Positions 44,538 to 56,769 of a DNA stretch of 60,186 nucleotides are shown here, one piece after another; the first letter of the stretch is position 1, and each line of letters starts with the position of its first letter. This DNA is from an uncultured Lachnospiraceae bacterium. GTDB lineage: Bacteria > Bacillota > Clostridia > Lachnospirales > Lachnospiraceae. The translations under genes and the position numbers were made by a program. The notes below the pieces were generated by a model. It was not told the origin of the DNA and did not search any database. It was given only the letters and a program-made list of their open reading frames with translations. The stretch lies in NCBI GenBank assembly GCA_949879775.1, contig CATLBW010000001.1, positions 1 to 60,186 of the forward strand, read 5' to 3'.

Positions 44538-45173
44538 TTAATAACGCTCCATTTCAAATTCTTCTAAAGGCCGGGTCGCATAATCAAACCCCTTGCCCCG
44601 CACTGCATTTGCCTGGCTCTGCCTTTGCCCTGCCGCATAAGGGTTCTCCCTTTGCCCTGCCGCGTAAGGGTTCTCTGCCGGATACCTAACCTTGGTCGAT
44701 GTAGTGCCGCCGGACACATAGTTCTTCCCACATTCCGGGCAAACCGCCGTCTCAAGGCGCACGGAAACAGACACAACTTCCCCGCCCTTTAGCGCCGCCT
44801 TACTGTAAGCATTTGCCACATGCTCCCCCTCATGGGCGCGCACCCTGCTGGCTGCCGCTTCTGGTGAAATATGCGCCGCCGCCTTAAAGGACACATTCTC
44901 GTCTGAACCATCCTTATATTTGCGGTTCTTACAGGTCTGGCACTCTTCGCCAAGCTCTTTCTTCCTAAAACCGTCTTTGGGCACCTCCTCTTCCTTCTGC
45001 GCCTTATCCGCCCACGGCAGCCGTTCTTCCCTGGGTTCTTTTTCTGCCTTGGGAACCTTCCCGGCTTCCTCTGCTTCTTTGTTGTTCTGTGGGCTGCCTG
45101 GCGCATCCATCTGTTTGTCCGCCGGATGTATACCATTATAAGATGTGTTGATCCCTACCATAAAACCTGCCAT
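44538..45173 (-). CDS. Hypothetical protein, SprA-related-like (HExxH plus two CxxC)
   Basis: CQTC, VRAHEGEHV, CPECG..YVSGG; internal 27-bp duplication ENPYAAGQR x2. Confidence 0.55.
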   Translation of the reverse strand: MAGFMVGINTSYNGIHPADKQMDAPGSPQNNKEAEEAGKVPKAEKEPREERLPWADKAQKEEEVPKDGFRKKELGEECQTCKNRKYKDGSDENVSFKAAAHISPEAAASRVRAHEGEHVANAYSKAALKGGEVVSVSVRLETAVCPECGKNYVSGGTTSTKVRYPAENPYAAGQRENPYAAGQRQSQANAVRGKGFDYATRPLEEFEMERY

Positions 45174-45424
45174 GCTTCCATCCCCTTCCCTAAACTATAC
45201 TATATTTTAGTGTAGCACATAATCTTCTTTTTGACAAATAAAAAACTTCTTAGGTCGCTTCACATTTTTTCAAAGAAAACCTTCTTACATCTTGAAAACC
45301 CACAATAACCAAAATCCGCGATAGACAAAATCACCGAACTTAGATTATAATATATAACATCGACACTTGAAAACGATAACAAATATAACAAAACAAATGA
45401 TAATAATTGAAAGGGGAATTTAAG

Positions 45425-46081
45425 ATGGCAGATTACGGAAACGAAATTTCTTCCATCAGTTTAGGAAGCATCATCGGCGGCGCCTTGAGCGCGATTGTAG
45501 AAGCACAGAGCCAGGCGGCACACACAACAGTGAACTTTATTAACGAGGTCGGTTTTGAAGAAAAACAGGGCAATCGGCAGCCAGTATACGTCGATTTTCA
45601 ATATGAAAAGACGCTTGCACCCGAGGAGGCAGAATCGGGGAACCCTAAGGAGCCTGAAGAGGACGAGACGAAAGCACCGTCCCGTACAGAGAACCTCAAA
45701 CAGGTGACAAATTTGAAGGTGCCGCTTCTTACTATGGTGCCAATCCCTTATATTCGGGTGGACGACGCGACAATCGATTTCAACGTCAAAATCAATTCCG
45801 TGCAGGAGACAAAATCATCCACTGATTTGACATATGGCGGCAATATGGATGCGCACGCCAATTATAACGGATTCCGCTTTAAAACAGGAATCAAATTAAG
45901 CGCCTCCATCTCCAACCAGAAAAAGAGCAGCACATCAGATACCGTAAAACGGGACTATTCCCTTAACGTCCATGTCCACGCCAAACAGGACGATATGCCG
46001 ACCGGGGTGGAGCGCCTGCTGGATTTACTTTCAGATGCATCGTCTGTCGAGAACCACACGGTAAAGGAGAATAAATCATGA
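45425..46081 (+). CDS. DUF2589 domain protein
   Basis: LGSIIGGALSAIVEAQ..AA.TT.NFI.EVGF, VPLLTMVPIP, YSLNVHVHAKQDDMPTG..RLLD; RBS GAAAGGGG; TAGACA-18-TATAAT at 45322-45351. Confidence 0.85.
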   Translation: MADYGNEISSISLGSIIGGALSAIVEAQSQAAHTTVNFINEVGFEEKQGNRQPVYVDFQYEKTLAPEEAESGNPKEPEEDETKAPSRTENLKQVTNLKVPLLTMVPIPYIRVDDATIDFNVKINSVQETKSSTDLTYGGNMDAHANYNGFRFKTGIKLSASISNQKKSSTSDTVKRDYSLNVHVHAKQDDMPTGVERLLDLLSDASSVENHTVKENKS

Positions 46082-46932
46082 TAACATTTGGTGAATTTGC
46101 AGGAGTACTGATCACGGATTTTTTGCAGGCGCGCAAAATTGCCGATACATACAGCGCAGCCCTCTCGGAGGAATATCATGTGAATCCCATTTTAAGCGGG
46201 ATGCCGGTACCTCATTACACGATTGATGAAGCTGAGATAGACGTCCCTGTAAAAGTCATGGGCATAAAAAAGACGGAAATTACACAGGAAATGGTGAAAA
46301 AAATTCTCGTAAAAATTGAACGGAACCTCCCCACACTGCTGTATCGGAATATCAAAAACAGCTATTATGAGAAGCAGGAGCATAACGTTTGGCTGAAAAA
46401 CGGCGCTGTGGAAGCGGATCAGGTTGGGGTTTCTCTGGACCCTGGCTTGGAACAGGATGAACAGGCAAGGGTAATACGATTAAGCGAGGAGCCGCAGTTA
46501 AAAGCATGTTATAAATCATCTGTGGCGTCGATTTGCACTTTAATGAATACATATATGAACACCTATATAGAGGAAAACAACATAGGCGAAATGAAACTGC
46601 TGGACTTTACGGACGCTTTTGTATCCACATTAAAAAGCTCCTGCAAGCAGGAATTCGGTTCTTATCCGGATACACAAACGCCGTTTATTGACAAATCGTC
46701 ATTGAAAAAAATGTGCCAAATCATCGGCAACACCATGTTTTTTGAATTCAAGGAAATCTTTGACCAAAAAGACGGCATCCTCATACTGCCGGAAACCGGC
46801 AAAATGGAAAGTAGCTGCACACCGGAACAGTTGATGCGGGTGAAGCTTAAGATCCGGGAACAGGACGTAAGCTTTGTGGTTGATAAAGATGAGAACAGCG
46901 GAGAGACCAAGCGCTTTCTGACCTTAGGTTAG
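46078..46932 (+). CDS. Hypothetical protein with a DUF2589-like N-terminus
   Basis: FGEFAGVLITDFLQARKIAD...PVPHYTIDEAEIDVP parallels AQ...PIPYIRVDDATIDF of the upstream protein; ATGA coupling. Confidence 0.6.
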   Translation: MITFGEFAGVLITDFLQARKIADTYSAALSEEYHVNPILSGMPVPHYTIDEAEIDVPVKVMGIKKTEITQEMVKKILVKIERNLPTLLYRNIKNSYYEKQEHNVWLKNGAVEADQVGVSLDPGLEQDEQARVIRLSEEPQLKACYKSSVASICTLMNTYMNTYIEENNIGEMKLLDFTDAFVSTLKSSCKQEFGSYPDTQTPFIDKSSLKKMCQIIGNTMFFEFKEIFDQKDGILILPETGKMESSCTPEQLMRVKLKIREQDVSFVVDKDENSGETKRFLTLG

Positions 46933-46937
46933 GTGAT

Positions 46938-47480
46938 GTGATGCTTTCGATAGAAGTAATCGAAGAATTTGAAAAATATTTTGAGAAAATGGTTCCGGTA
47001 ATTGAAGCAATTAACAGGGATTATTACCTTCCAGAAGAAAAAGCAGGCGAATACCTGGCAGTTCTCGTCTCCATGAGTGAAGATTGCCATCTTCCATTCG
47101 CTTCGGATCTTGCTGTCCTCAAAGCACAGATGTACCAATATGTGCCAGAGATGGACGGAAGGGACAGGTCCGGCGGCAAATACGAAAGGAAACGCAAGAA
47201 ACAGTATCTGCTCAACGGCCTAAAGCAGGCCAAAGCCTATGCAGACGATTACTTTGCAGGGACGCGCCGGCTCCTTCAGGAATGCAGCATTTTGCTGCGT
47301 AAAGTGGCGGCAGTCGCCTCAGCCAAAGGCCTGGCTTTGGAGAATGGCGCCGAACAGTTAATTGAGGACATAAAACAGGATGAAGAACTGTCTGCCGCAC
47401 TGACAAGCGCCATTGGCTCGGTAGGGTATTCTAATATGAAATGTTTATTGCAACGCGCTATTGCAGACGTTACGGAATAA
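46938..47480 (+). CDS. Hypothetical helical protein
   Basis: 180-aa ORF in the operon with AGGTGA RBS; no recognisable motif. Confidence 0.6.
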   Translation: MMLSIEVIEEFEKYFEKMVPVIEAINRDYYLPEEKAGEYLAVLVSMSEDCHLPFASDLAVLKAQMYQYVPEMDGRDRSGGKYERKRKKQYLLNGLKQAKAYADDYFAGTRRLLQECSILLRKVAAVASAKGLALENGAEQLIEDIKQDEELSAALTSAIGSVGYSNMKCLLQRAIADVTE

Positions 47481-47492
47481 CCCCTGCCACAT

Positions 47493-47882
47493 ATGCGGCA
47501 ACAGATATTGGAGGGAATTTGTTTGAATAAGTTAGAATTTGACCAGGTCGTAAGTTTAACACATTTTTTAGAAAAATATACACAACAAATGATGGACGCA
47601 GGCAAAGATAAGGTTATTACGTTTTCCAGCGAAGATAAAAATACGTGGGATACTTTTTTTGAAACGCTTATAAATCCAGGGATTTTGCAGGATGGTATGG
47701 CTTTCCATACGCCCTGTAACGATACCAAGGTCGGGATTGGCAGTGATGGTGCCTGCTACAGGGAAGAATTCTTACAGCTTCTGATGCAGTGTTACAAGTA
47801 TCTGTACCTGGCGCTTTCCAGCGGAGAAATCTTTCTCAAGCACAAGAACTGGTATACGTCAGATGGAAAGGAGACTTCATAG
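47493..47882 (+). CDS. Hypothetical protein (possibly the N-terminus of the next gene)
   Basis: 129-aa ORF whose end overlaps the open frame of the next ORF. Confidence 0.45.
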   Translation: MRQQILEGICLNKLEFDQVVSLTHFLEKYTQQMMDAGKDKVITFSSEDKNTWDTFFETLINPGILQDGMAFHTPCNDTKVGIGSDGACYREEFLQLLMQCYKYLYLALSSGEIFLKHKNWYTSDGKETS

Positions 47883-47887
47883 GAATT

Positions 47888-49528
47888 ATGTGCAACCTTA
47901 GGAAAGCCAATAAGAAAGACCGTGAACAATACCGGGGGCATCTGAATCGAATCTTCTATTGGGTCCAATGGGAAACCAGCCCATCATTGGACAATCTGAT
48001 GCAGGAACTTAAACCTTTAACAGACTTCTATATGGAACCGCAGGCAGAAGAAACCAGAAAGGGGATTTTATCCTTGCTTTCAAATATCCAAACTGAGACG
48101 CTTTACCGGAAACTCGTCTCGCTGCAAGGTGAGCTGCTATCGTTCCTGATAACATATGACGAAGCCATTGAGCCGGACTTTAACGGGAAAAACCCTTATA
48201 CATTTTTCTATTTTTTACCCCAAAACCCACACAAAACGGCAGATGTGCTAAACCGTGCGTCAGAGATATACGCTAAGTTTGGTTCCCATACCCATCATAT
48301 ATTGGAATACCTGTTCCGGCTGGGAGGGTTTGTGGCCAGCTCTTCCGCTCCCAGCACAGCTGAGCAACCCGAAAATTTTATTAATTTCTTTTTGCGGCGC
48401 AGCTACAACTTTTTATTGGGAATGGAAACAATCCAACACCAATTGGCAACTGCAAGGCTCGTCTACATCGCCGACTCACTCATTCCAACTGGCGGCGATA
48501 TGCACTGTGACGGAAAAGTCCCCTGTATCATTGACTATAACAACGAAAAATATGTTTATAAACCGAGGGATATGAGAATTGACTGGATCGTAACGCAGGC
48601 GATTGCCTTTTGCTCACAATTTTTGGAGAAGGAAATGCAATTGCCATCGTTAAATATCCGTTTGCTTCCGGATACTACCGGACTGGTACAGTTCGCGTTC
48701 CATGCGGATGAGATGAGCTTTGAACAGGCAGGAAGTTATTTTACAAAACTGGGCGCACTGTTATGTATTTCCAAACTATTTGGCGTCCGGGACCTTCATT
48801 ATGAAAACATTATGGCAACATTGGAAGGACCGGTCATCATTGACATGGAATGCGCGTTTAGCGCGGAGGCAATTAGCAGCGAAACCGTCTGTGACACCTC
48901 TTTCTTTTTAATGAAGCAGGCATTTTCACGCAAATCAGCGCAGAATGCAACTTTTTCGGTGGAGGGGCAGATTCCAACTTTAGCAGCATTCAAGGAACAA
49001 ATCATAAACGGCTTTACAACAGCAGCAGCATGTTTGTACAGCCACCGGCAACATCTGATAGAATATTACCGGAATTTATTGATGACATCCATTTCTTATC
49101 GGATCGTTCCGATCCCGACACAAGATTTCTATGGGAACATATGGGCTTTTTTAGACAATTCCTCCACATCGGCTATGATAAAAAAAAGATTGCTACCACT
49201 ATACAAACAGCTATATGATGGTCTGTATAGACACATTATGGAATGCATCCCCAGAGAGCAATTTGAACAATGTTTGAAAAAAAAATTTATTCAGTACGAA
49301 ATTTATCGTACCTTGTATTATGGAAATATCCCTATTTTTAATATGACAGTTAAAGCAGATTCCGACGGGACTGTTTATTATACCGGCTATATAAACAGCG
49401 TTTCCTTTTTCAAGAGGGCGATTGCGGTAACTTCCCTCGACAATTTGACCACAGCGTTTGAGGCGCAGATCAGGTATTTGATATCGAAACCTGCATTAGA
49501 GGCTGTCAAAAAATTCACGGATAGCTGA
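47888..49528 (+). CDS. DUF4135 / LanM-type dehydratase-kinase domain protein without cyclase (frame is open from at least 47789)
   Basis: GDMH.DGK, YVYKPR, DLHYENI, PVIIDMEC, YRIVPIPT, GNIPIF; ends with no LanC domain. Confidence 0.8.
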   Translation: MCNLRKANKKDREQYRGHLNRIFYWVQWETSPSLDNLMQELKPLTDFYMEPQAEETRKGILSLLSNIQTETLYRKLVSLQGELLSFLITYDEAIEPDFNGKNPYTFFYFLPQNPHKTADVLNRASEIYAKFGSHTHHILEYLFRLGGFVASSSAPSTAEQPENFINFFLRRSYNFLLGMETIQHQLATARLVYIADSLIPTGGDMHCDGKVPCIIDYNNEKYVYKPRDMRIDWIVTQAIAFCSQFLEKEMQLPSLNIRLLPDTTGLVQFAFHADEMSFEQAGSYFTKLGALLCISKLFGVRDLHYENIMATLEGPVIIDMECAFSAEAISSETVCDTSFFLMKQAFSRKSAQNATFSVEGQIPTLAAFKEQIINGFTTAAACLYSHRQHLIEYYRNLLMTSISYRIVPIPTQDFYGNIWAFLDNSSTSAMIKKRLLPLYKQLYDGLYRHIMECIPREQFEQCLKKKFIQYEIYRTLYYGNIPIFNMTVKADSDGTVYYTGYINSVSFFKRAIAVTSLDNLTTAFEAQIRYLISKPALEAVKKFTDS

Positions 49529-49543
49529 ATCGGAGATGAGATT

Positions 49544-49984
49544 TTGAAAAACCACAGCAAAGAAGAAACGGCATTATTTTATATCGGGTGGGCGCTGGTC
49601 TTTGTTGCCGGCATTTGCCTGCTCATATACCGGGCAATGCCCCTGCCATACACAAAACTTATGATGCCCTGCATTTTCCACAGCGTTACCGGGTTTTACT
49701 GCCCTGGCTGCGGCGGCACCAGGGCGGTTTCCGCGCTGCTGCATGGGCGCATTGCCGCCTCGTTCGTCTGCCACCCCTTGGTCCCATGCGCCGCCATTAC
49801 CGCAGGATGGTTCTTAATCAGCCAGAGCATCGAGCGCCTTTCCCGGCACAGGGTTAAAATTGGCATGAAATACCGCGACGTCTATATCTGGGCGGCGTTG
49901 GGGATTGTCATCCTGAATTTTATCGTAAAAAATTTACTGCTGATCATATGGGGCGTCGATTTGCTGCAGGGGATTAATCTGTAA
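49544..49984 (+). CDS. DUF2752 domain membrane protein
   Basis: PCIFHSVTGFYCPGCGGTRA..L..G....SF..HP. Confidence 0.88.
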   Translation: MKNHSKEETALFYIGWALVFVAGICLLIYRAMPLPYTKLMMPCIFHSVTGFYCPGCGGTRAVSALLHGRIAASFVCHPLVPCAAITAGWFLISQSIERLSRHRVKIGMKYRDVYIWAALGIVILNFIVKNLLLIIWGVDLLQGINL

Positions 49985-53048: not shown

Positions 53049-54017
53049 CTAAAATTTCCTGCTGCCGCCGCTAGAGCTTCGCCCCCCGGAGCCGGTATGC
53101 ACGGTGCTCCTGCTGCCGCCGCCAGAGCTGCCCGTCTGCTTGGGAATATGCCGCCTTGTAACAAAAGAATTGACAAGCCTGTCTTCCTTTGCCGTCAGGT
53201 TTACGCGCCCATTCTTCTCTATCGGATATTTGTAGCCGCCAAATTTCAGGCGGTATTTGCCAAAAATACCACAAATTGCCCCGCCCCCAGCGGCAACCGC
53301 CAAACCCAGGGCAATAAGGATTTCCGATAAAGTGATGGACTTCTTGCGGGGATGCCGGATCACTTCTCCTGTGTCTTCATCCTGTAGATAATTTTTACTG
53401 GCATTTTCATTTTGATAAGCGTCCTCCACTTCATCTAACATTGCCTGCAAGGTGGCTGCGTACTTTTCCTCTGAAACTGCCTCATATCCTGCGTCAAGAA
53501 TCCTCTCCGTGCGGTTATCGGTGATATAGTACCTGGCTTCCCCAAAGGCGCGTACCACAATTTCACGGTTATCCATATCAATAGCGCAGATAACCCCGTC
53601 ATCGTTTGCAGTATATCTGTCAAACCAGCTTTCCGCATACGACGTTGCGTCCTCCCCGCCAGCATCGTCGGTAGTCAGCGCCATAAACTCCCAGCCTGTG
53701 CGTCCTTCAAGCTCCGCCAGCCTGCGTTCCACCTCTTTTGCTTCTGTTACCGACAGCAGCCCCGCCTGGTCTGTAAGCTGCGCATTCTCTTCTGTTTGCC
53801 CTGCCTGGTCTGCAAGCTGCACTTTCTCTTCCGTCTGCCCTGCCTGGTCTGCAAGCTGCACTTTCTCTTCCGTCTGCCCTGCCTGCTGCGCATTCTCTTC
53901 TGTTTGCCCTGCCTGGTCTGCAAGCTGCACTTTCCCTTGCGCCTGCACAGGCACCATGCAAAAAATTACCATACACAGCAAGAAAGCCAACGCCAAGCGT
54001 CTCTTTAACAATTTCAT
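53049..54017 (-). CDS. TPM domain membrane protein
   Basis: Signal peptide; DQAGLLS, DGVICAIDMDNRE; TM helix; Gly/Ser tail GGSRKF. Confidence 0.85.
   Translation of the reverse strand: MKLLKRRLALAFLLCMVIFCMVPVQAQGKVQLADQAGQTEENAQQAGQTEEKVQLADQAGQTEEKVQLADQAGQTEENAQLTDQAGLLSVTEAKEVERRLAELEGRTGWEFMALTTDDAGGEDATSYAESWFDRYTANDDGVICAIDMDNREIVVRAFGEARYYITDNRTERILDAGYEAVSEEKYAATLQAMLDEVEDAYQNENASKNYLQDEDTGEVIRHPRKKSITLSEILIALGLAVAAGGGAICGIFGKYRLKFGGYKYPIEKNGRVNLTAKEDRLVNSFVTRRHIPKQTGSSGGGSRSTVHTGSGGRSSSGGSRKF
53760..53935 (-). repeat. Coding tandem repeats (39/30-bp units)
   Basis: KVQLADQAGQTEE x3, NAQQAGQTEE, NAQLTDQAG. Confidence 0.85.
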
Positions 54018-55123
54018 AGCATCCATCCTCCCAGCAGCCCCAACAGAAGTACCAGCATAAATATGACAATGCCCAAAATCCAGACTTTTGCCCCATCGAC
54101 CGGCAGCTCGCCGTAAACTTTTCCGTTCTGCCCGTTCATGGAATAATAGTATATCTTTCCGTCACGTCCTTTATATGTAACCGTCCATACCGGAAGCATA
54201 ATATAGTCCCAATGCTCCTTTTGCGTTTGGACCTGGCAGCTATTCACTCTTAAATGCCCGTAGCCGCCTGCTGTCTCTTGAAGAAGCCTCTTAGCAAACT
54301 CCTTGGCGTCTTCCAATACTTCCGCCTGTAAATCATCGCGTTCCAAATCACGCTTTTCCGCTAAAAACCCGGACAGATAACCCATATGGAAGCCCTGGAC
54401 CTTACTCACGTCATAGGGCAGCACGCCTTCCGCCAACTTAAGGCTGTTTTTCTTCAACGCGTTCTTTGTAATATCTTCGAGATGGATATTTCCCCTGCGT
54501 TCCACATGGTAAACCTTCGTCTCTGTGTATTCCGTATCCCCGCTGCGCCAAACGCGAAGGTTCTTTCCTTCCGCCTGCAATGAGCCTCTCATGTCCATAT
54601 CCGCCATCCAGTATGGGAAATATACCCCGGAAATTTTCTCAATCTGCTGTTTGTTAAAAAATGCTTTAGGCACGAATTTCTTGCTATGCGCATATTCTAG
54701 GAATTTTTCAGTGGCCTGCTGCTTATCAATCGTAAAGGGAATGATTTTGTGAGGCAAAAATTCCCCGGAAACACGACCGGAAAGCACAACCGGGTTATGG
54801 CAATAGTAGCAAAACGTAGCCGCTGTCGTTCGGTCCGTCACAATCTGCGCGCCACAGCTTGGGCAGCGGTACATTACGCCTTCCTCCGCATCCTGGGGCT
54901 GCTTTGCCCCTCCACTTTCCTGCATGCTTGGGGATGGTCCCGCCCCTTCCAGCGTGCCATGGGATTCCGCCGCCCTCTCCTCTTCCTCCTGCGCGGGTCT
55001 CATCTGCACAAGCTCCTCCTGCGAAAACGCAGAAGCACAGTATTCGCACTTGTACTTCTGCGTCGCTGGATGGAAGACCAGTTCACCATCGCAATTCGGA
55101 CATTTATAACTGATTACTGCCAT
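54014..55123 (-). CDS. Zinc-ribbon membrane protein (YdjG-like)
   Basis: CPNC/CEYC and CPSC/CYYC; YFPYW; LPVW; NGQNGKVYG.LP; C-terminal TM. Confidence 0.8.
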   Translation of the reverse strand: MAVISYKCPNCDGELVFHPATQKYKCEYCASAFSQEELVQMRPAQEEEERAAESHGTLEGAGPSPSMQESGGAKQPQDAEEGVMYRCPSCGAQIVTDRTTAATFCYYCHNPVVLSGRVSGEFLPHKIIPFTIDKQQATEKFLEYAHSKKFVPKAFFNKQQIEKISGVYFPYWMADMDMRGSLQAEGKNLRVWRSGDTEYTETKVYHVERRGNIHLEDITKNALKKNSLKLAEGVLPYDVSKVQGFHMGYLSGFLAEKRDLERDDLQAEVLEDAKEFAKRLLQETAGGYGHLRVNSCQVQTQKEHWDYIMLPVWTVTYKGRDGKIYYYSMNGQNGKVYGELPVDGAKVWILGIVIFMLVLLLGLLGGWML

Positions 55124-55213
55124 CGCTTATCTCCTTAATTATAACTGTTTAGAAACATTCATTGGGGAACCCAAATACCCGGGCGGCCTTTGCCCTCTGC
55201 CCAATGATTACTG

Positions 55214-55423
55214 TAGTGTCTTGTCTCGTTGATGTTTGATAAAATCACGTAGGATATTCGCTCATCTGCAAGGCGGATTTTCGACGGCGTAGCGGTGGCG
55301 TTTATCACAAGGAGGGACCCGCTTGCGGGAGGATGCCTTATGATGTACGACTAGAAAATCCAACGAAGCAGATGTGTGAATAGACAAGTGAGTTTAACTG
55401 ATTATCAATGAGACAAGACACTA
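55214..55423. mobile_element. MITE-like foldback element (210 bp)
   Basis: TIRs TAGTGTCTTGTCTCGTTGAT / ATCAATGAGACAAGACACTA (19/20 match); inner arms also pair (CATCTGC/GCAGATG, GGATTTTC/GAAAATCC). Confidence 0.75.
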
Positions 55424-56769
55424 GGCTTGCCGCACTGCGAACAGAACTTGCCGCTATTTTTAACACCGCACACGCAAACCCATTCTCCACTGTCTTGCGG
55501 TTTGGGTTTGCCGCATTCCGAGCAAAAATTCCCGCTATTTTCCTGGCCGCATTCACAAATCCACGTCTTTGACCCCTGTGGCTTGGGCTTGCCGCATTCT
55601 GAACAGAATCTCCCGCTATTCTTAACGCCGCATTCACAAGTCCACCCCTGCGTGGCGCTTTGCCCCTGCTGCGCAGCCGCATTGGCGCTGCCCTGCATCG
55701 CCGTATTTGCAGGCTTTGGCATCGCCATATTGGCGTTGTTTTGCATCGCTGCGTTTTGCTGCATAGCCGCATTCTGCTGCATCTGCATTTGCTGCATATT
55801 GGCAGCGGAAGCAACGCCCATAGCGGAACCCATAGCGTTCATGCCCATACCCATGCCCATAAAACCAGACATCGCGCCTGCTGAGTTGGAACCTGCGGCT
55901 TCCAGCCCGCGTGCCACATGTCCTTGCATATAGCCCTCGCGGACCGTGGGGTCGCTCAGCATGGCCCCTTCGTTGCGCATATTAATCAATTCTGTGGATT
56001 TCTCGTCATACGTGACGCTGGCAATGCCCACAGCCTGGATTTCCATGCCGCGCATCTGCCTCCAGTCCTCATCCAGGGTGTCCGCCATATATTTCCCTAA
56101 TTCACGCCCTTTGGAAGGCACATAGGAAATGCGGATGCCGTCTGCGGACATCTGGTTAATTGCCGACTGCAACGCTTCAAGGAACTCCGCCATATACTGC
56201 TCGTTGATATCCTCAATCTGCACCTTCGCCGCATTTCTGGGAATCGCTTCGGCGTAAAACTTGACAGGGTCTGTAATCTTGATGGAGTACGTCCCATGGG
56301 TGCGCAGAAATAATTCTGCATTATAAAAATTGTCAAAATAATTGATCGGGTTCCTGGTGCCGAATTTGATGCCCTTAATCTCCTGTAAATTGATATAAAA
56401 CACTTTTTGCCTGGCAGGCGTCCCCCCGCCAAATTTGATACGGCTAAAAGATTCCCGTATAGCATCTTTTAGTTCCCCGTTAAATAAAGACGGCAGCGCA
56501 GAGTTATCTACCTTAAAATATCCCGGCTCAGCCGTGTAATCGACAATCCTGCCGCCATCCACCAACATCATAAACTGGTTGTCATATACATGGATAACGG
56601 AACCATTGCTGACCGTGCCGTCGCTGCCTTTCTTATTCTGCCCTTTGCGCATAAGGATTCCGCTGGTAAATACCGTGCGATCCCCCATATCATCCGGCTC
56701 AACCACTTCCAGCCATTGATCCGCCAGCCCGCCGGAGACTGACTGTATGGCCGCTTTTATAATTCCCAT
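55405..56769 (-). CDS. SPFH (band 7) domain protein with C-terminal zinc ribbons (YdjI-like)
   Basis: SNGS.I.V, INLQEIKGIKFGT, GMGMGM; three WxCxCG...FCSxCGKP repeats. Confidence 0.85.
   Translation of the reverse strand: MGIIKAAIQSVSGGLADQWLEVVEPDDMGDRTVFTSGILMRKGQNKKGSDGTVSNGSVIHVYDNQFMMLVDGGRIVDYTAEPGYFKVDNSALPSLFNGELKDAIRESFSRIKFGGGTPARQKVFYINLQEIKGIKFGTRNPINYFDNFYNAELFLRTHGTYSIKITDPVKFYAEAIPRNAAKVQIEDINEQYMAEFLEALQSAINQMSADGIRISYVPSKGRELGKYMADTLDEDWRQMRGMEIQAVGIASVTYDEKSTELINMRNEGAMLSDPTVREGYMQGHVARGLEAAGSNSAGAMSGFMGMGMGMNAMGSAMGVASAANMQQMQMQQNAAMQQNAAMQNNANMAMPKPANTAMQGSANAAAQQGQSATQGWTCECGVKNSGRFCSECGKPKPQGSKTWICECGQENSGNFCSECGKPKPQDSGEWVCVCGVKNSGKFCSQCGKPSVLSH

Follow-up and report, generated by a model that had tools for sequence, protein, structure and literature searches.

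A DUF2589 gene cassette with a stand-alone LanM-type dehydratase in a Lachnospiraceae bacterium: a possible carrier with exchangeable cargo

Results

The window analysed here is a stretch of 60,186 nucleotides from an uncultured Lachnospiraceae bacterium (GenBank assembly GCA_949879775.1, contig CATLBW010000001.1). Within it, as the initial annotation had observed, five ORFs run in one direction, all on the plus strand, and form a cassette of about 4.1 kb. ORF1 (45425..46081, 218 aa) is a DUF2589 protein and overlaps by an ATGA with ORF2 (46078..46932, 284 aa), a diverged DUF2589 paralogue. ORF3 (46941..47480, alternative start 46938, 179 aa) matches no known family, ORF4 (47523..47882, 119 aa) is a single copy of an undescribed helical domain, and ORF5 (47888..49528, 546 aa) is a predicted stand-alone LanM-type Ser/Thr kinase-dehydratase. 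The first three are called core A, B and C below. ORF4 was first listed at 47493-47882; its most likely start is TTG 47523, because a ribosome-binding site (GGAGGG) precedes it and 5/5 aligned homologues begin with MNK, which gives a protein of 119 aa and a gap of 42 bp before it. The tight packing first described (gaps of 5-12 bp) thus holds for the ATGA overlap and the conserved 5-bp spacing of ORF4 and ORF5, but not for the gap before ORF4. Neither a signal peptide nor a helix-type membrane span (best 19-residue hydropathy 1.54) was found in any of ORF1-5.

The inserted cassette extends over 45246..49531 (plus strand) and takes the place of about 250 bp of intergenic DNA: in a blastn comparison with an empty site (L054), the match stops at 45245 and restarts at 49532. 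This site was empty in 22 of 30 fetched loci, unclear in six and filled in two. The next gene, outside the cassette, encodes a DUF2752 membrane protein (49544..49984, plus strand, GC3 0.68) and is a resident carried by 47 of the 49 genomes in the genus; the flanks are housekeeping genes and not a defence island, as their ordinary look had suggested. The AT-richness noticed by eye is real but mild, with a GC content of 44.2% in the cassette (11th percentile among 2426 windows), 46.1% in the left flank, 51.6% in the right flank and 47.8% in the genome. Recent transfer, considered on the grounds of GC or codon use, was rejected because cassette GC tracks host GC in 12 loci ranging from 27% to 48%. 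Of the proposed horizontal acquisition, the insertion is supported, while composition does not support a recent gain.

The cassette occupies at least five different sites in Lachnospiraceae (window/L002, L001, L003, L004/L005 and L007). DUF2589 and DUF4135 co-occur in full cassettes in L001, L002, L004, L005, L007 and G029, and the cargo is deleted or broken in L006 and L124. The spread is patchy, with ORF4 in 3/49 genomes of the genus and ORF3 in 1/400 other Lachnospiraceae. In a sequencing run, probably of DNA, contigs span 45125-49764 in three pieces at ~85-92% identity. A candidate sigma-70-type promoter, TAGACA-18-TATAAT (45322..45351, plus strand), was the top of 12 sites in a site scan, with 11/12 positions matched; the number of sites by itself equals chance, since shuffled sequences yield 10.3. 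This site is retained in L001, L002 and L003, three different insertion sites, but is not visible in L004 or L007; as a candidate promoter it thus travels with some copies of the cassette.

ORF1 matches PF11655 with E 1.5e-29 and 103.8 bits (curated cut-off 23), in line with its first assignment to DUF2589. DUF2589 is found in bacteria, archaea and phages. Of about 8.4 million papers searched, two name DUF2589, both in passing, and none gives the identifier PF11655; the mentions of the family stand in expression tables, with no function described. The AlphaFold2 model of ORF1 (mean pLDDT 64) has a long helix (residues 13-43), beta strands and a long hairpin. The beta-hairpin suspected at the outset is amphipathic with an aromatic tip (residues 135-166; 45827..45922, plus strand) and has a model pLDDT below 50; its hydrophobic/polar alternation exceeds that of shuffles in 32/51 and 34/51 rows, which are mutually related ORF1 relatives, such alternation being normal for any sheet with one buried face. 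From this pattern, the hairpin is a candidate membrane-spanning or barrel-forming element. The layout of ORF1 presumably resembles that of Trypco; no Trypco/Pepco Pfam match occurred among the 51 relatives. Foldseek with the ORF1 monomer (pLDDT 64) gave no match at E 0.001, and a fold search gave a best Z of 4.3, the sheet at residues 109-189 being weakly SecB-like (Z 4.0-4.3, rmsd ~4, 74-76 residues aligned). Nothing was found under E 0.04 in a PDB sequence search with ORF1 and ORF3 profiles, or under E 0.01 in PHROGs.

ORF2, for which 66 homologues were found, was said to repeat the N-terminal pattern of ORF1. This holds as a weak resemblance over 37-39 positions (37 aa align at 30% identity with E 6e-6, and hhalign gives 73% for 39 columns), but not as a DUF2589 match, a Pfam scan of ORF2 having found neither this nor another family. 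ESM Atlas places ORF2 at 0.77 to a DUF2589 cluster, which we treat as a lead only, and returned only unnamed clusters for an ORF3 relative. The ORF3 profile matched 21 ORFs among 32 loci and 7/401 Bacteroidota genomes; in each of the seven new loci read, genes A and B precede the match. The order A-B-C is preserved between phyla and the core is common to Lachnospiraceae, other Bacillota and Bacteroidota, in about 1/100 genomes (3/400 in the phylum). ORF3, initially taken for an accessory adaptor or immunity protein, is thus rather a third core gene. ORF1 and ORF2 are under strong purifying selection (dN/dS 0.04-0.15; 0.05-0.15 for ORF1).

The cassette has a two-layer build, in which the conserved core ORF1-3 is followed by a swappable tail. 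A recognisable enzyme or toxin part lies directly behind C in 7 of 13 lineages, the lineages being grouped by eye and the neighbour counts being raw. These tails are ORF4-5 in the Lachnospiraceae clade that includes this cassette, a CHAP hydrolase (L042-44), a GH25 hydrolase (L045-46), DUF261 with a ricin lectin (L049, L100), CHAP with SUKH/Imm35 genes upstream (L110), the Tc-type toxin part SpvB/TcdB (L112) and an S8 protease (L115-116). No enzyme follows C in four lineages (Tenacibaculum and L111, L035, L036, L114), and only an uncharacterised ORF does so in the other two. S8 or papain-like proteases lie behind other DUF2589 loci (L023, L024, L049, L115, L116), and in several lineages, as well as on viral contigs, DUF2589 genes are followed by cell-wall hydrolases. 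The N-terminus was not strongly hydrophobic (best 10-residue hydropathy < 2) in 10/12 neighbour proteins. A protein of 327-376 aa in L042-45 was not counted as an enzyme, because its nitrilase-like reading, based on a motif (PE-F, K, C), had no library support; viral matches L092-L099 were dropped, their similarity being a short motif only. The cargo role first suggested for the enzyme fits these changing neighbourhoods.

The ORF4 domain, covered by no Pfam or NCBIfam model, occurs elsewhere (48 representatives) mostly as a tandem pair, which either stands free or is joined to another protein, for example adenosine deaminase, alkyl sulfatase or an HExxH protein. Since the domain rides on many unrelated enzymes, a role of ORF4 in binding or targeting is more likely than the immunity function suggested at first. 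A tandem relative (P0186) has a confidently predicted fold (pLDDT 92.7), for which a fold search found nothing in the PDB or a viral library (best Z 4.5), and another relative (P0202) has a signal peptide. At the one readable locus of a tandem-domain enzyme (G663, alkyl sulfatase) no DUF2589 match was present; a search of 269 genomes from the class (one unscored), of plasmids and of phages gave no further hits, and 5/5 genomes with other DUF2589 cassettes lack the domain. Complex prediction for ORF5 with ORF4 scored 0.00, which, the partner fold being uncertain, speaks neither for nor against an interaction. The idea that the ORF5 N-terminus is a second ORF4 repeat was rejected (hhalign 0.1%).

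The sole Pfam domain of ORF5 is DUF4135 (E 3.7e-34). Aligned with CylM (E 3.6e-21), ORF5 keeps all nine catalytic positions, D252, H254, K274, D347, H349, N352, D364, R506 and T512 in CylM numbering (roles from PMC4550811), and they are invariant across 16-17 aligned rows. Both the LanM-type dehydratase and its missing cyclase, as first read, were confirmed: the match ends at CylM residue 568 of 993, ORF5 itself ends at 546 aa, and Pfam finds no LanC-like cyclase domain in it. The LanC model PF05147 had no match elsewhere in the genome (G000), nor in any control genome. The missing precursor and exporter were likewise borne out, with no conserved precursor-like intergenic ORF among 95 small ORFs and no C39 exporter (PF03412) in G000, 95% complete, a domain found in 7/14 controls. 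The reaction predicted for ORF5 is phosphorylation of Ser/Thr followed by dehydration, the second step being expected because the elimination pair R506/T512 is intact. It also carries the Tox-Peptide Kinase motif (D204-H206, YKPR 224-227, D302-H304-E306-N307, D319-E321, R405), with no PVC metallopeptidase domain; PF06841 (PVC/eCIS) had no match in G000, nor in any control genome. ORF5 is the fastest-changing gene of the cassette (38-79% identity, dN/dS 0.27-0.38), with a conserved active-site region. No immunity gene for it is evident. ORF1-5 include no cell-wall hydrolase, protease or sensor, and G000 encodes the type VII secretion protein EssC and three WXG100 genes. Toxin use of a LanM dehydratase domain was not found among the literature matches listed.

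Discussion

We propose, at somewhat less than even confidence, that ORF1-3 are a pore-type carrier with an exchangeable toxin cargo slot, filled here by ORF4 and ORF5. The three-gene core likely builds a hairpin-lined pore or carrier: ORF1 and ORF2 would together form an oligomeric beta-barrel, ORF3 would help its assembly or plug it, and cargo without a signal peptide would exit, or enter a target, through the assembly or by lysis that it causes. ORF5 is probably a protein-inactivating toxin against rival cells; it would act on folded proteins, with no use of a leader peptide, and leave dehydroalanine or dehydrobutyrine, which a phosphatase could not reverse. ORF4 would be the binding module as a separate chain, where other enzymes bear a fused tandem tag.

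Several observations argue for this proposal: the constant A-B-C order with an enzyme or toxin part behind it in just over half of the lineages, the full CylM residue set joined to the Tox-Peptide Kinase signature, the lack of a conserved small ORF and C39 exporter, and the mostly non-hydrophobic N-termini of the neighbours. The fast change of ORF5, the patchy spread and the cargo-broken copies point the same way, as does the hairpin alternation, which resembles the Pepco barrel (bioRxiv 2025.11.14.688446). Against it, six lineages have either no enzyme or only an uncharacterised ORF behind C, the alternation is what any half-buried sheet would give and comes from related rows in a low-confidence region, and no immunity gene is evident. 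The ORF4 domain also occurs independently of DUF2589, once with a signal peptide; the dN/dS of ORF5 is below 1 and similar to that of the resident DUF2752 gene (0.26 in one pair tested). Type VII secretion would be an alternative export route, the cassette has no cell-wall hydrolase, which Gram-positive pore export seemingly requires, and the known cyclase-less LanM enzymes PoyF and EmbM act on their own peptides. The fuller version, in which A-B-C is an undescribed hetero-oligomeric beta-barrel machine that delivers exchangeable enzymes without signal peptides across an envelope, and its cargo here a one-chain, ATP-driven dehydratase toxin aimed by ORF4 at proteins of rival cells, we consider doubtful.

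The same hairpin pattern would suit self-directed lysis or abortive defence, in which the core, once triggered, would breach the membrane of its own cell in the manner of Pepco/Trypco pores or a holin, and ORF5 would act within that cell as a regulator or second effector instead of being exported. Pepco barrels are described as suicide pores (bioRxiv 10.1101/2025.11.14.688446), and the cell-wall hydrolases behind DUF2589 genes, viral contigs included, would fit as well. We nevertheless judge this unlikely, given a cassette with no protease, sensor or hydrolase and its housekeeping surroundings; PADLOC matched none of ORF1, ORF4 and ORF5, and its matches to ORF2-3 were weak (best E 8e-4).

Two further explanations are less probable still, and about equally so. 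ORF5 could be a maturase that dehydrates Ser/Thr of a cassette protein (the ORF1 hairpin, ORF2 or ORF4) or of an unlinked peptide, for which its complete residue set, its pairing with ORF4 in every intact copy read and the precedents PoyF and EmbM speak. The initial annotation had raised such a modifier role, but the hairpin is equally Ser/Thr-rich with ORF5 (share 0.21-0.23 in four copies) and without it (0.18-0.30 in ten) and lacks Cys in 14/14 copies. Moreover, 12/13 lineages retain the core without ORF5, neither precursor-like ORF nor exporter was found, the ~55-residue CylM insert (CylM ~390-445) is missing, and ORF5 evolves faster than its supposed substrates. The core could instead be an abundant structural polymer or chaperone that shelters or stabilises the enzymes encoded beside it within the cell. 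The strong purifying selection acting on ORF1-2, host-like GC, lineages with the core alone, recurring SecB-type chains and Archaeoglobus DUF2589 genes whose expression rises with lactate (PMC3949148) agree with this, but Z < 5 is commonplace for any sheet, and presence in ~1/100 genomes with toxin, hydrolase and immunity neighbours fits conflict better than housekeeping.

That ORF4-5 are an independent pair, landed once behind the core in a Lachnospiraceae ancestor and sharing only its promoter, is very unlikely: the pair is limited to one clade, its ORF4 domain lives separately on other enzymes and type VII secretion is at hand, but the five genes moved jointly to at least five sites and stayed linked, 5-bp spacing included, while synonymous sites saturated, and a distant set (P0123, P0182, P0279) sharing its longest contig, 5264 bases, suggests linkage too.

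Taken together, the initial interpretation is supported in part, including its claim of an undescribed module. Should the core prove to be a carrier with an open cargo slot, polymorphic toxin biology would gain a further route of export in Gram-positive gut bacteria, where few are known. ORF5 would be a testable LanM case of irreversible dehydration of folded proteins without a leader peptide, and potentially a tool for producing dehydroalanine, while ORF4 defines a domain family, well-folding by prediction, outside Pfam and NCBIfam models. Because the operon, at 4.1 kb, is compact enough for cloning in one piece, the carrier, ORF5 and ORF4 questions are directly testable.

Among known systems, the DUF2589 clusters of Archaeoglobus (AF0414-0417) and Bacteroides fragilis (BF9343_2744) share the family of ORF1. 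In excerpts of the sources, Pepco/Trypco protease-activated barrels have the N-terminal helix, amphipathic hairpin and signal-less form of ORF1 (bioRxiv 10.1101/2025.11.14.688446, PMC7159879); ORF1 is twice as long, with a paralogue and a helical partner, in a cassette without a protease. Type 10 secretion, a holin and a peptidoglycan hydrolase releasing signal-less toxins, is similar in that a few genes lie next to toxins or hydrolases that have no signal peptide, and a cell-wall hydrolase accompanies DUF2589 in other lineages, whereas ORF1-5 have no holin-like transmembrane helix or hydrolase family.

CylM (5dzt) and LicM2 (6st5) share with ORF5 the dehydratase domain and its nine catalytic residues (PMC4550811); ORF5 differs in lacking the cyclase domain and the ~55-residue insert and in having its own N-terminal 160 residues. 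PoyF (polytheonamide) and EmbM (phospeptin) are likewise dehydratases without a cyclase (PMC9505594, PMC9259500), and both adjoin a leader-bearing precursor; EmbM only phosphorylates, its elimination residues being altered, whereas ORF5 keeps them. Also comparable is the Tox-Peptide Kinase domain of polymorphic toxin systems in Firmicutes, for which Zhang et al. 2012 (PMC3482391) give the signature DxH, YKP[KR], DxHxEN, DxE, R and propose action on Ser/Thr of target proteins. Like ORF5 it is a cyclase-free LanM-type kinase with the same motif, but it sits at the tip of a protein that is delivered by PVC and also contains a PVC metallopeptidase, whereas ORF5 stands free behind a DUF2589 core and retains the elimination pair, so that dehydration is predicted in addition to phosphorylation.

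Organization and distribution of the cassette

All five ORFs claimed by the initial annotation were present as stated (45425..49528, +). ORF1 (45425-46081, +) and ORF5 (47888-49528, +) were assigned by Pfam to DUF2589 and DUF4135, respectively, while no Pfam or NCBIfam family was obtained above cut-off for ORF2, ORF3 or ORF4. ORF4 probably starts at TTG 47523, since a ribosome-binding site lies there and five aligned homologues start at the same point. Three cassettes inserted at different sites retain a promoter-like site (45322-45351), which is not visibly kept in two others.

The co-occurrence of DUF2589 with DUF4135 elsewhere, raised by the initial annotation, was borne out, as the whole cassette was found at loci L001, L002, L004, L005 and L007 and in genome G029, at no fewer than five insertion sites. 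At L006, the stretch from mid-ORF2 to mid-ORF5 is deleted, and at L124, ORF5 is split in two pieces. In the window, the insertion spans about 45246 to 49531. Among 49 genomes of the genus, 47 have the resident membrane protein gene 3' of it, DUF2752, and 3 have ORF4; the 30 DUF2752 loci fetched comprised 2 with the cassette, 22 with an empty site and 6 unclear. DUF2589 of any type was found in 4/36 congeners and in 3/400 genomes of the phylum.

The cassette had also been described as AT-rich and horizontally acquired. Its GC content is indeed below that of the genome (44.2% versus 47.8%), but this places it just at the 11th percentile of 2426 windows. Cassette GC tracks that of the flanks from 27% to 48% across 12 related loci; thus composition argues against recent import, and the cassette is an old, ameliorated element.

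Several features were observed around the insertion sites. At L101 (G029:C45, 2418-7403), a 3' remnant of a phosphoglycerate mutase gene lies 3' of the cassette, and that gene flanks the site in the window, which hints that the cassette travelled with flanking DNA. Also encoded in this stretch are a 75-aa peptide whose tail is Cys-rich and three proteins of the radical SAM/SPASM type, likely a RiPP cluster. A tyrosine integrase-like gene, a possible means of movement, lies 5' of the core at L043 (by Pfam) and at L044, L049 and L100 (by sequence likeness). At L006, L047 and L048, the deleted cassette follows clustered, repeated short paralogues and an 887-aa protein whose NTPase matches are weak. 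In the window, a divergent gene (44538-45173, -) encodes a 211-aa protein with a CxxC pair and the short internal repeat ENPYAAGQR in two copies; it is kept beside DUF2752 across the genus and matches no family above cut-off. Further along, at 53049-56769 (-), lies an operon whose products we take to be TPM-like (with N-terminal repeats), zinc-ribbon and SPFH-like (with C-terminal zinc ribbons) proteins.

A conserved core with a changing tail

The order of ORF1, ORF2 and the helical protein ORF3 is conserved among their homologues in other Bacillota and in Bacteroidota, Tenacibaculum included. An ORF3 profile matched 21 ORFs in 32 loci, and it matched in 1/400 further Lachnospiraceae and 7/401 Bacteroidota. 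When near-identical loci were grouped by eye into 13 lineages (raw counts, with the end of L040 and L041 not fully covered), the tail behind ORF3 contained a recognisable enzyme or toxin part in seven, an ORF of no family in two and nothing in four. The seven tails are ORF4-5; a protein of no family with CHAP; the same no-family protein with GH25; DUF261 with a ricin lectin; CHAP, with SUKH and Imm35 genes upstream; SpvB/TcdB; and an S8 protease. A second DUF2589 type lacks ORF3, and C39-like peptidases or muramidases come after it.

In the congeners G009 and G021 (L023, L024), a different DUF2589 pair has long extensions at the C-terminus and is accompanied by a C39-like peptidase, and L023 adjoins transposase-like genes. 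At L042-L045, a conserved gene 3' of ORF3 encodes a protein of 327-376 aa, without a match in the libraries searched, whose motif we take to be reminiscent of nitrilases.

The hairpin of ORF1

ORF1 was modelled with AlphaFold2 from 51 rows (mean pLDDT 64), giving a helix at 13-43 and strands at 91-125 and 174-188, with pLDDT below 50 in the hairpin at 135-166. Hydrophobic/polar alternation in the two hairpin strands exceeded that of shuffles in 32/51 and 34/51 rows, and in three other segments it did so in 0/51, 11/51 and 1/51 rows. The hairpin tip is aromatic in 14/14 aligned copies. This alternation fits a barrel-forming hairpin, but any one-sided sheet could give the same pattern. The hairpin resembles the barrel-forming hairpin of Pepco, a beta-barrel pore that is activated by a protease, as presented in part of bioRxiv 2025.11.14.688446. 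ORF2, a diverged paralogue, has in common with ORF1 the strand following the helix. Purifying selection on both genes is strong (dN/dS 0.04-0.15 in pairs with a measurable dS; many of the 15 pairs compared were saturated).

ORF5 is a predicted dehydratase

ORF5 aligned with residues 203-568 of the class II lanthipeptide synthetase CylM (E 3.6e-21). Nine CylM residues have equivalents in ORF5: D204, H206 and K225 correspond to D252, H254 and K274; D302, H304, N307 and D319 to D347, H349, N352 and D364; and R405 and T411 to R506 and T512. All are invariant in 16 or 17 of the covering rows. In CylM, R506 and T512 act together with D252 and H254 to drive the elimination of phosphate, according to an excerpt of Dong et al. 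(PMC4550811). The kept kinase and elimination residues predict full dehydratase activity for ORF5; EmbM differs in that it does no more than phosphorylate, in the sections available of PMC9259500 and PMC9505594. ORF5 also bears the motif of Tox-Peptide Kinase, which Zhang et al. list, in the part of PMC3482391 consulted, as a toxin tip in Firmicutes.

The usual LanM partners were not found, as had been noted: ORF5 lacks a cyclase domain, the intergenic stretches of the cassette hold no conserved precursor-like ORF, and the host genome (G000) has no C39 exporter. ORF5 is the quickest-evolving of the five genes (38-79% identity, dN/dS 0.27-0.38); the resident DUF2752 gene gave 0.26 (one pair).

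ORF4 belongs to a wider domain family

Out of 1.84 billion representatives, an ORF4 profile retrieved 48. In most of these the domain is present twice, and the pair either stands by itself (about 205 aa) or is joined N- or C-terminally to larger proteins, including adenosine deaminases (2), alkyl sulfatases (6), HExxH proteins (labelled from the sequence motif) and large proteins of no family. Being tandem or fused to diverse enzymes, the domain has the pattern that marks a putative portable binding or targeting module. A tandem relative has a predicted fold at pLDDT 92.7. P0185-P0229 form a helical, tandem ORF4-type family without prior description, of which P0211 carries five copies.

The domain is not specific to DUF2589. 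In G663 it occurs on a sulfatase, with no DUF2589 match in that genome, it was absent from all five genomes bearing other DUF2589 cassettes, and the relative P0202 has a signal peptide. That single-copy forms go with this cassette is suggestive only; the longest contigs of P0182 and P0184 are of the same size as those of the ORF2 homologues P0123 and P0128. The G663 sulfatase, an alkyl sulfatase, is inserted among arrayed surface proteins, at least seven in number and paralogous to one another (L122-L123, G663:C1 about 2834000-2855500), with BspA LRR and choline-binding repeats in the one scanned.

Proposed function and comparison with known systems

As the likeliest of the readings considered, we tentatively propose that ORF1 and ORF2 would assemble an oligomeric hairpin barrel, assisted by ORF3, and that the slot 3' of this core would hold a signal-less cargo moved by the barrel. 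Here the cargo would be the protein dehydratase ORF5, putatively toxic and directed by ORF4. The gene architecture, residue set and domain distribution in this proposal are taken directly from the data.

Neither an immunity gene nor a wall hydrolase is apparent in the cassette, which counts against the carrier and cargo reading. Self-lysis or defence as the role of the operon is unlikely. A maturase is improbable: ORF5 had been suggested as a possible modifier of the DUF2589 pair, but the Ser/Thr share of the hairpin is equal with or without ORF5, so the hairpin is not shaped as a substrate. The four lineages without cargo also count against a carrier with cargo, and a structural or chaperone assembly would be no more probable than a maturase. 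That ORF4-5 is a passenger behind the core is very unlikely.

A further point against the carrier and cargo reading is that G000 has type VII secretion, with EssC and three WXG100 genes at G000:C13 31181-37095; EssC was found above cut-off in 3/5 cassette genomes.

No description of the operon was found in the literature searched on DUF2589, DUF4135 and Trypco, a scope that left out subscription papers and bioRxiv supplements, and PF11655 (DUF2589) is not mentioned in the literature searched. A lanthipeptide cluster and a type 10 system were both rejected for this operon, and a Pepco module is no more than a candidate identity for it. It is doubtful that the DUF2589 core is a new delivery machine. 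In its workings the operon would come closest to a polymorphic toxin locus whose carrier is uncharacterised.
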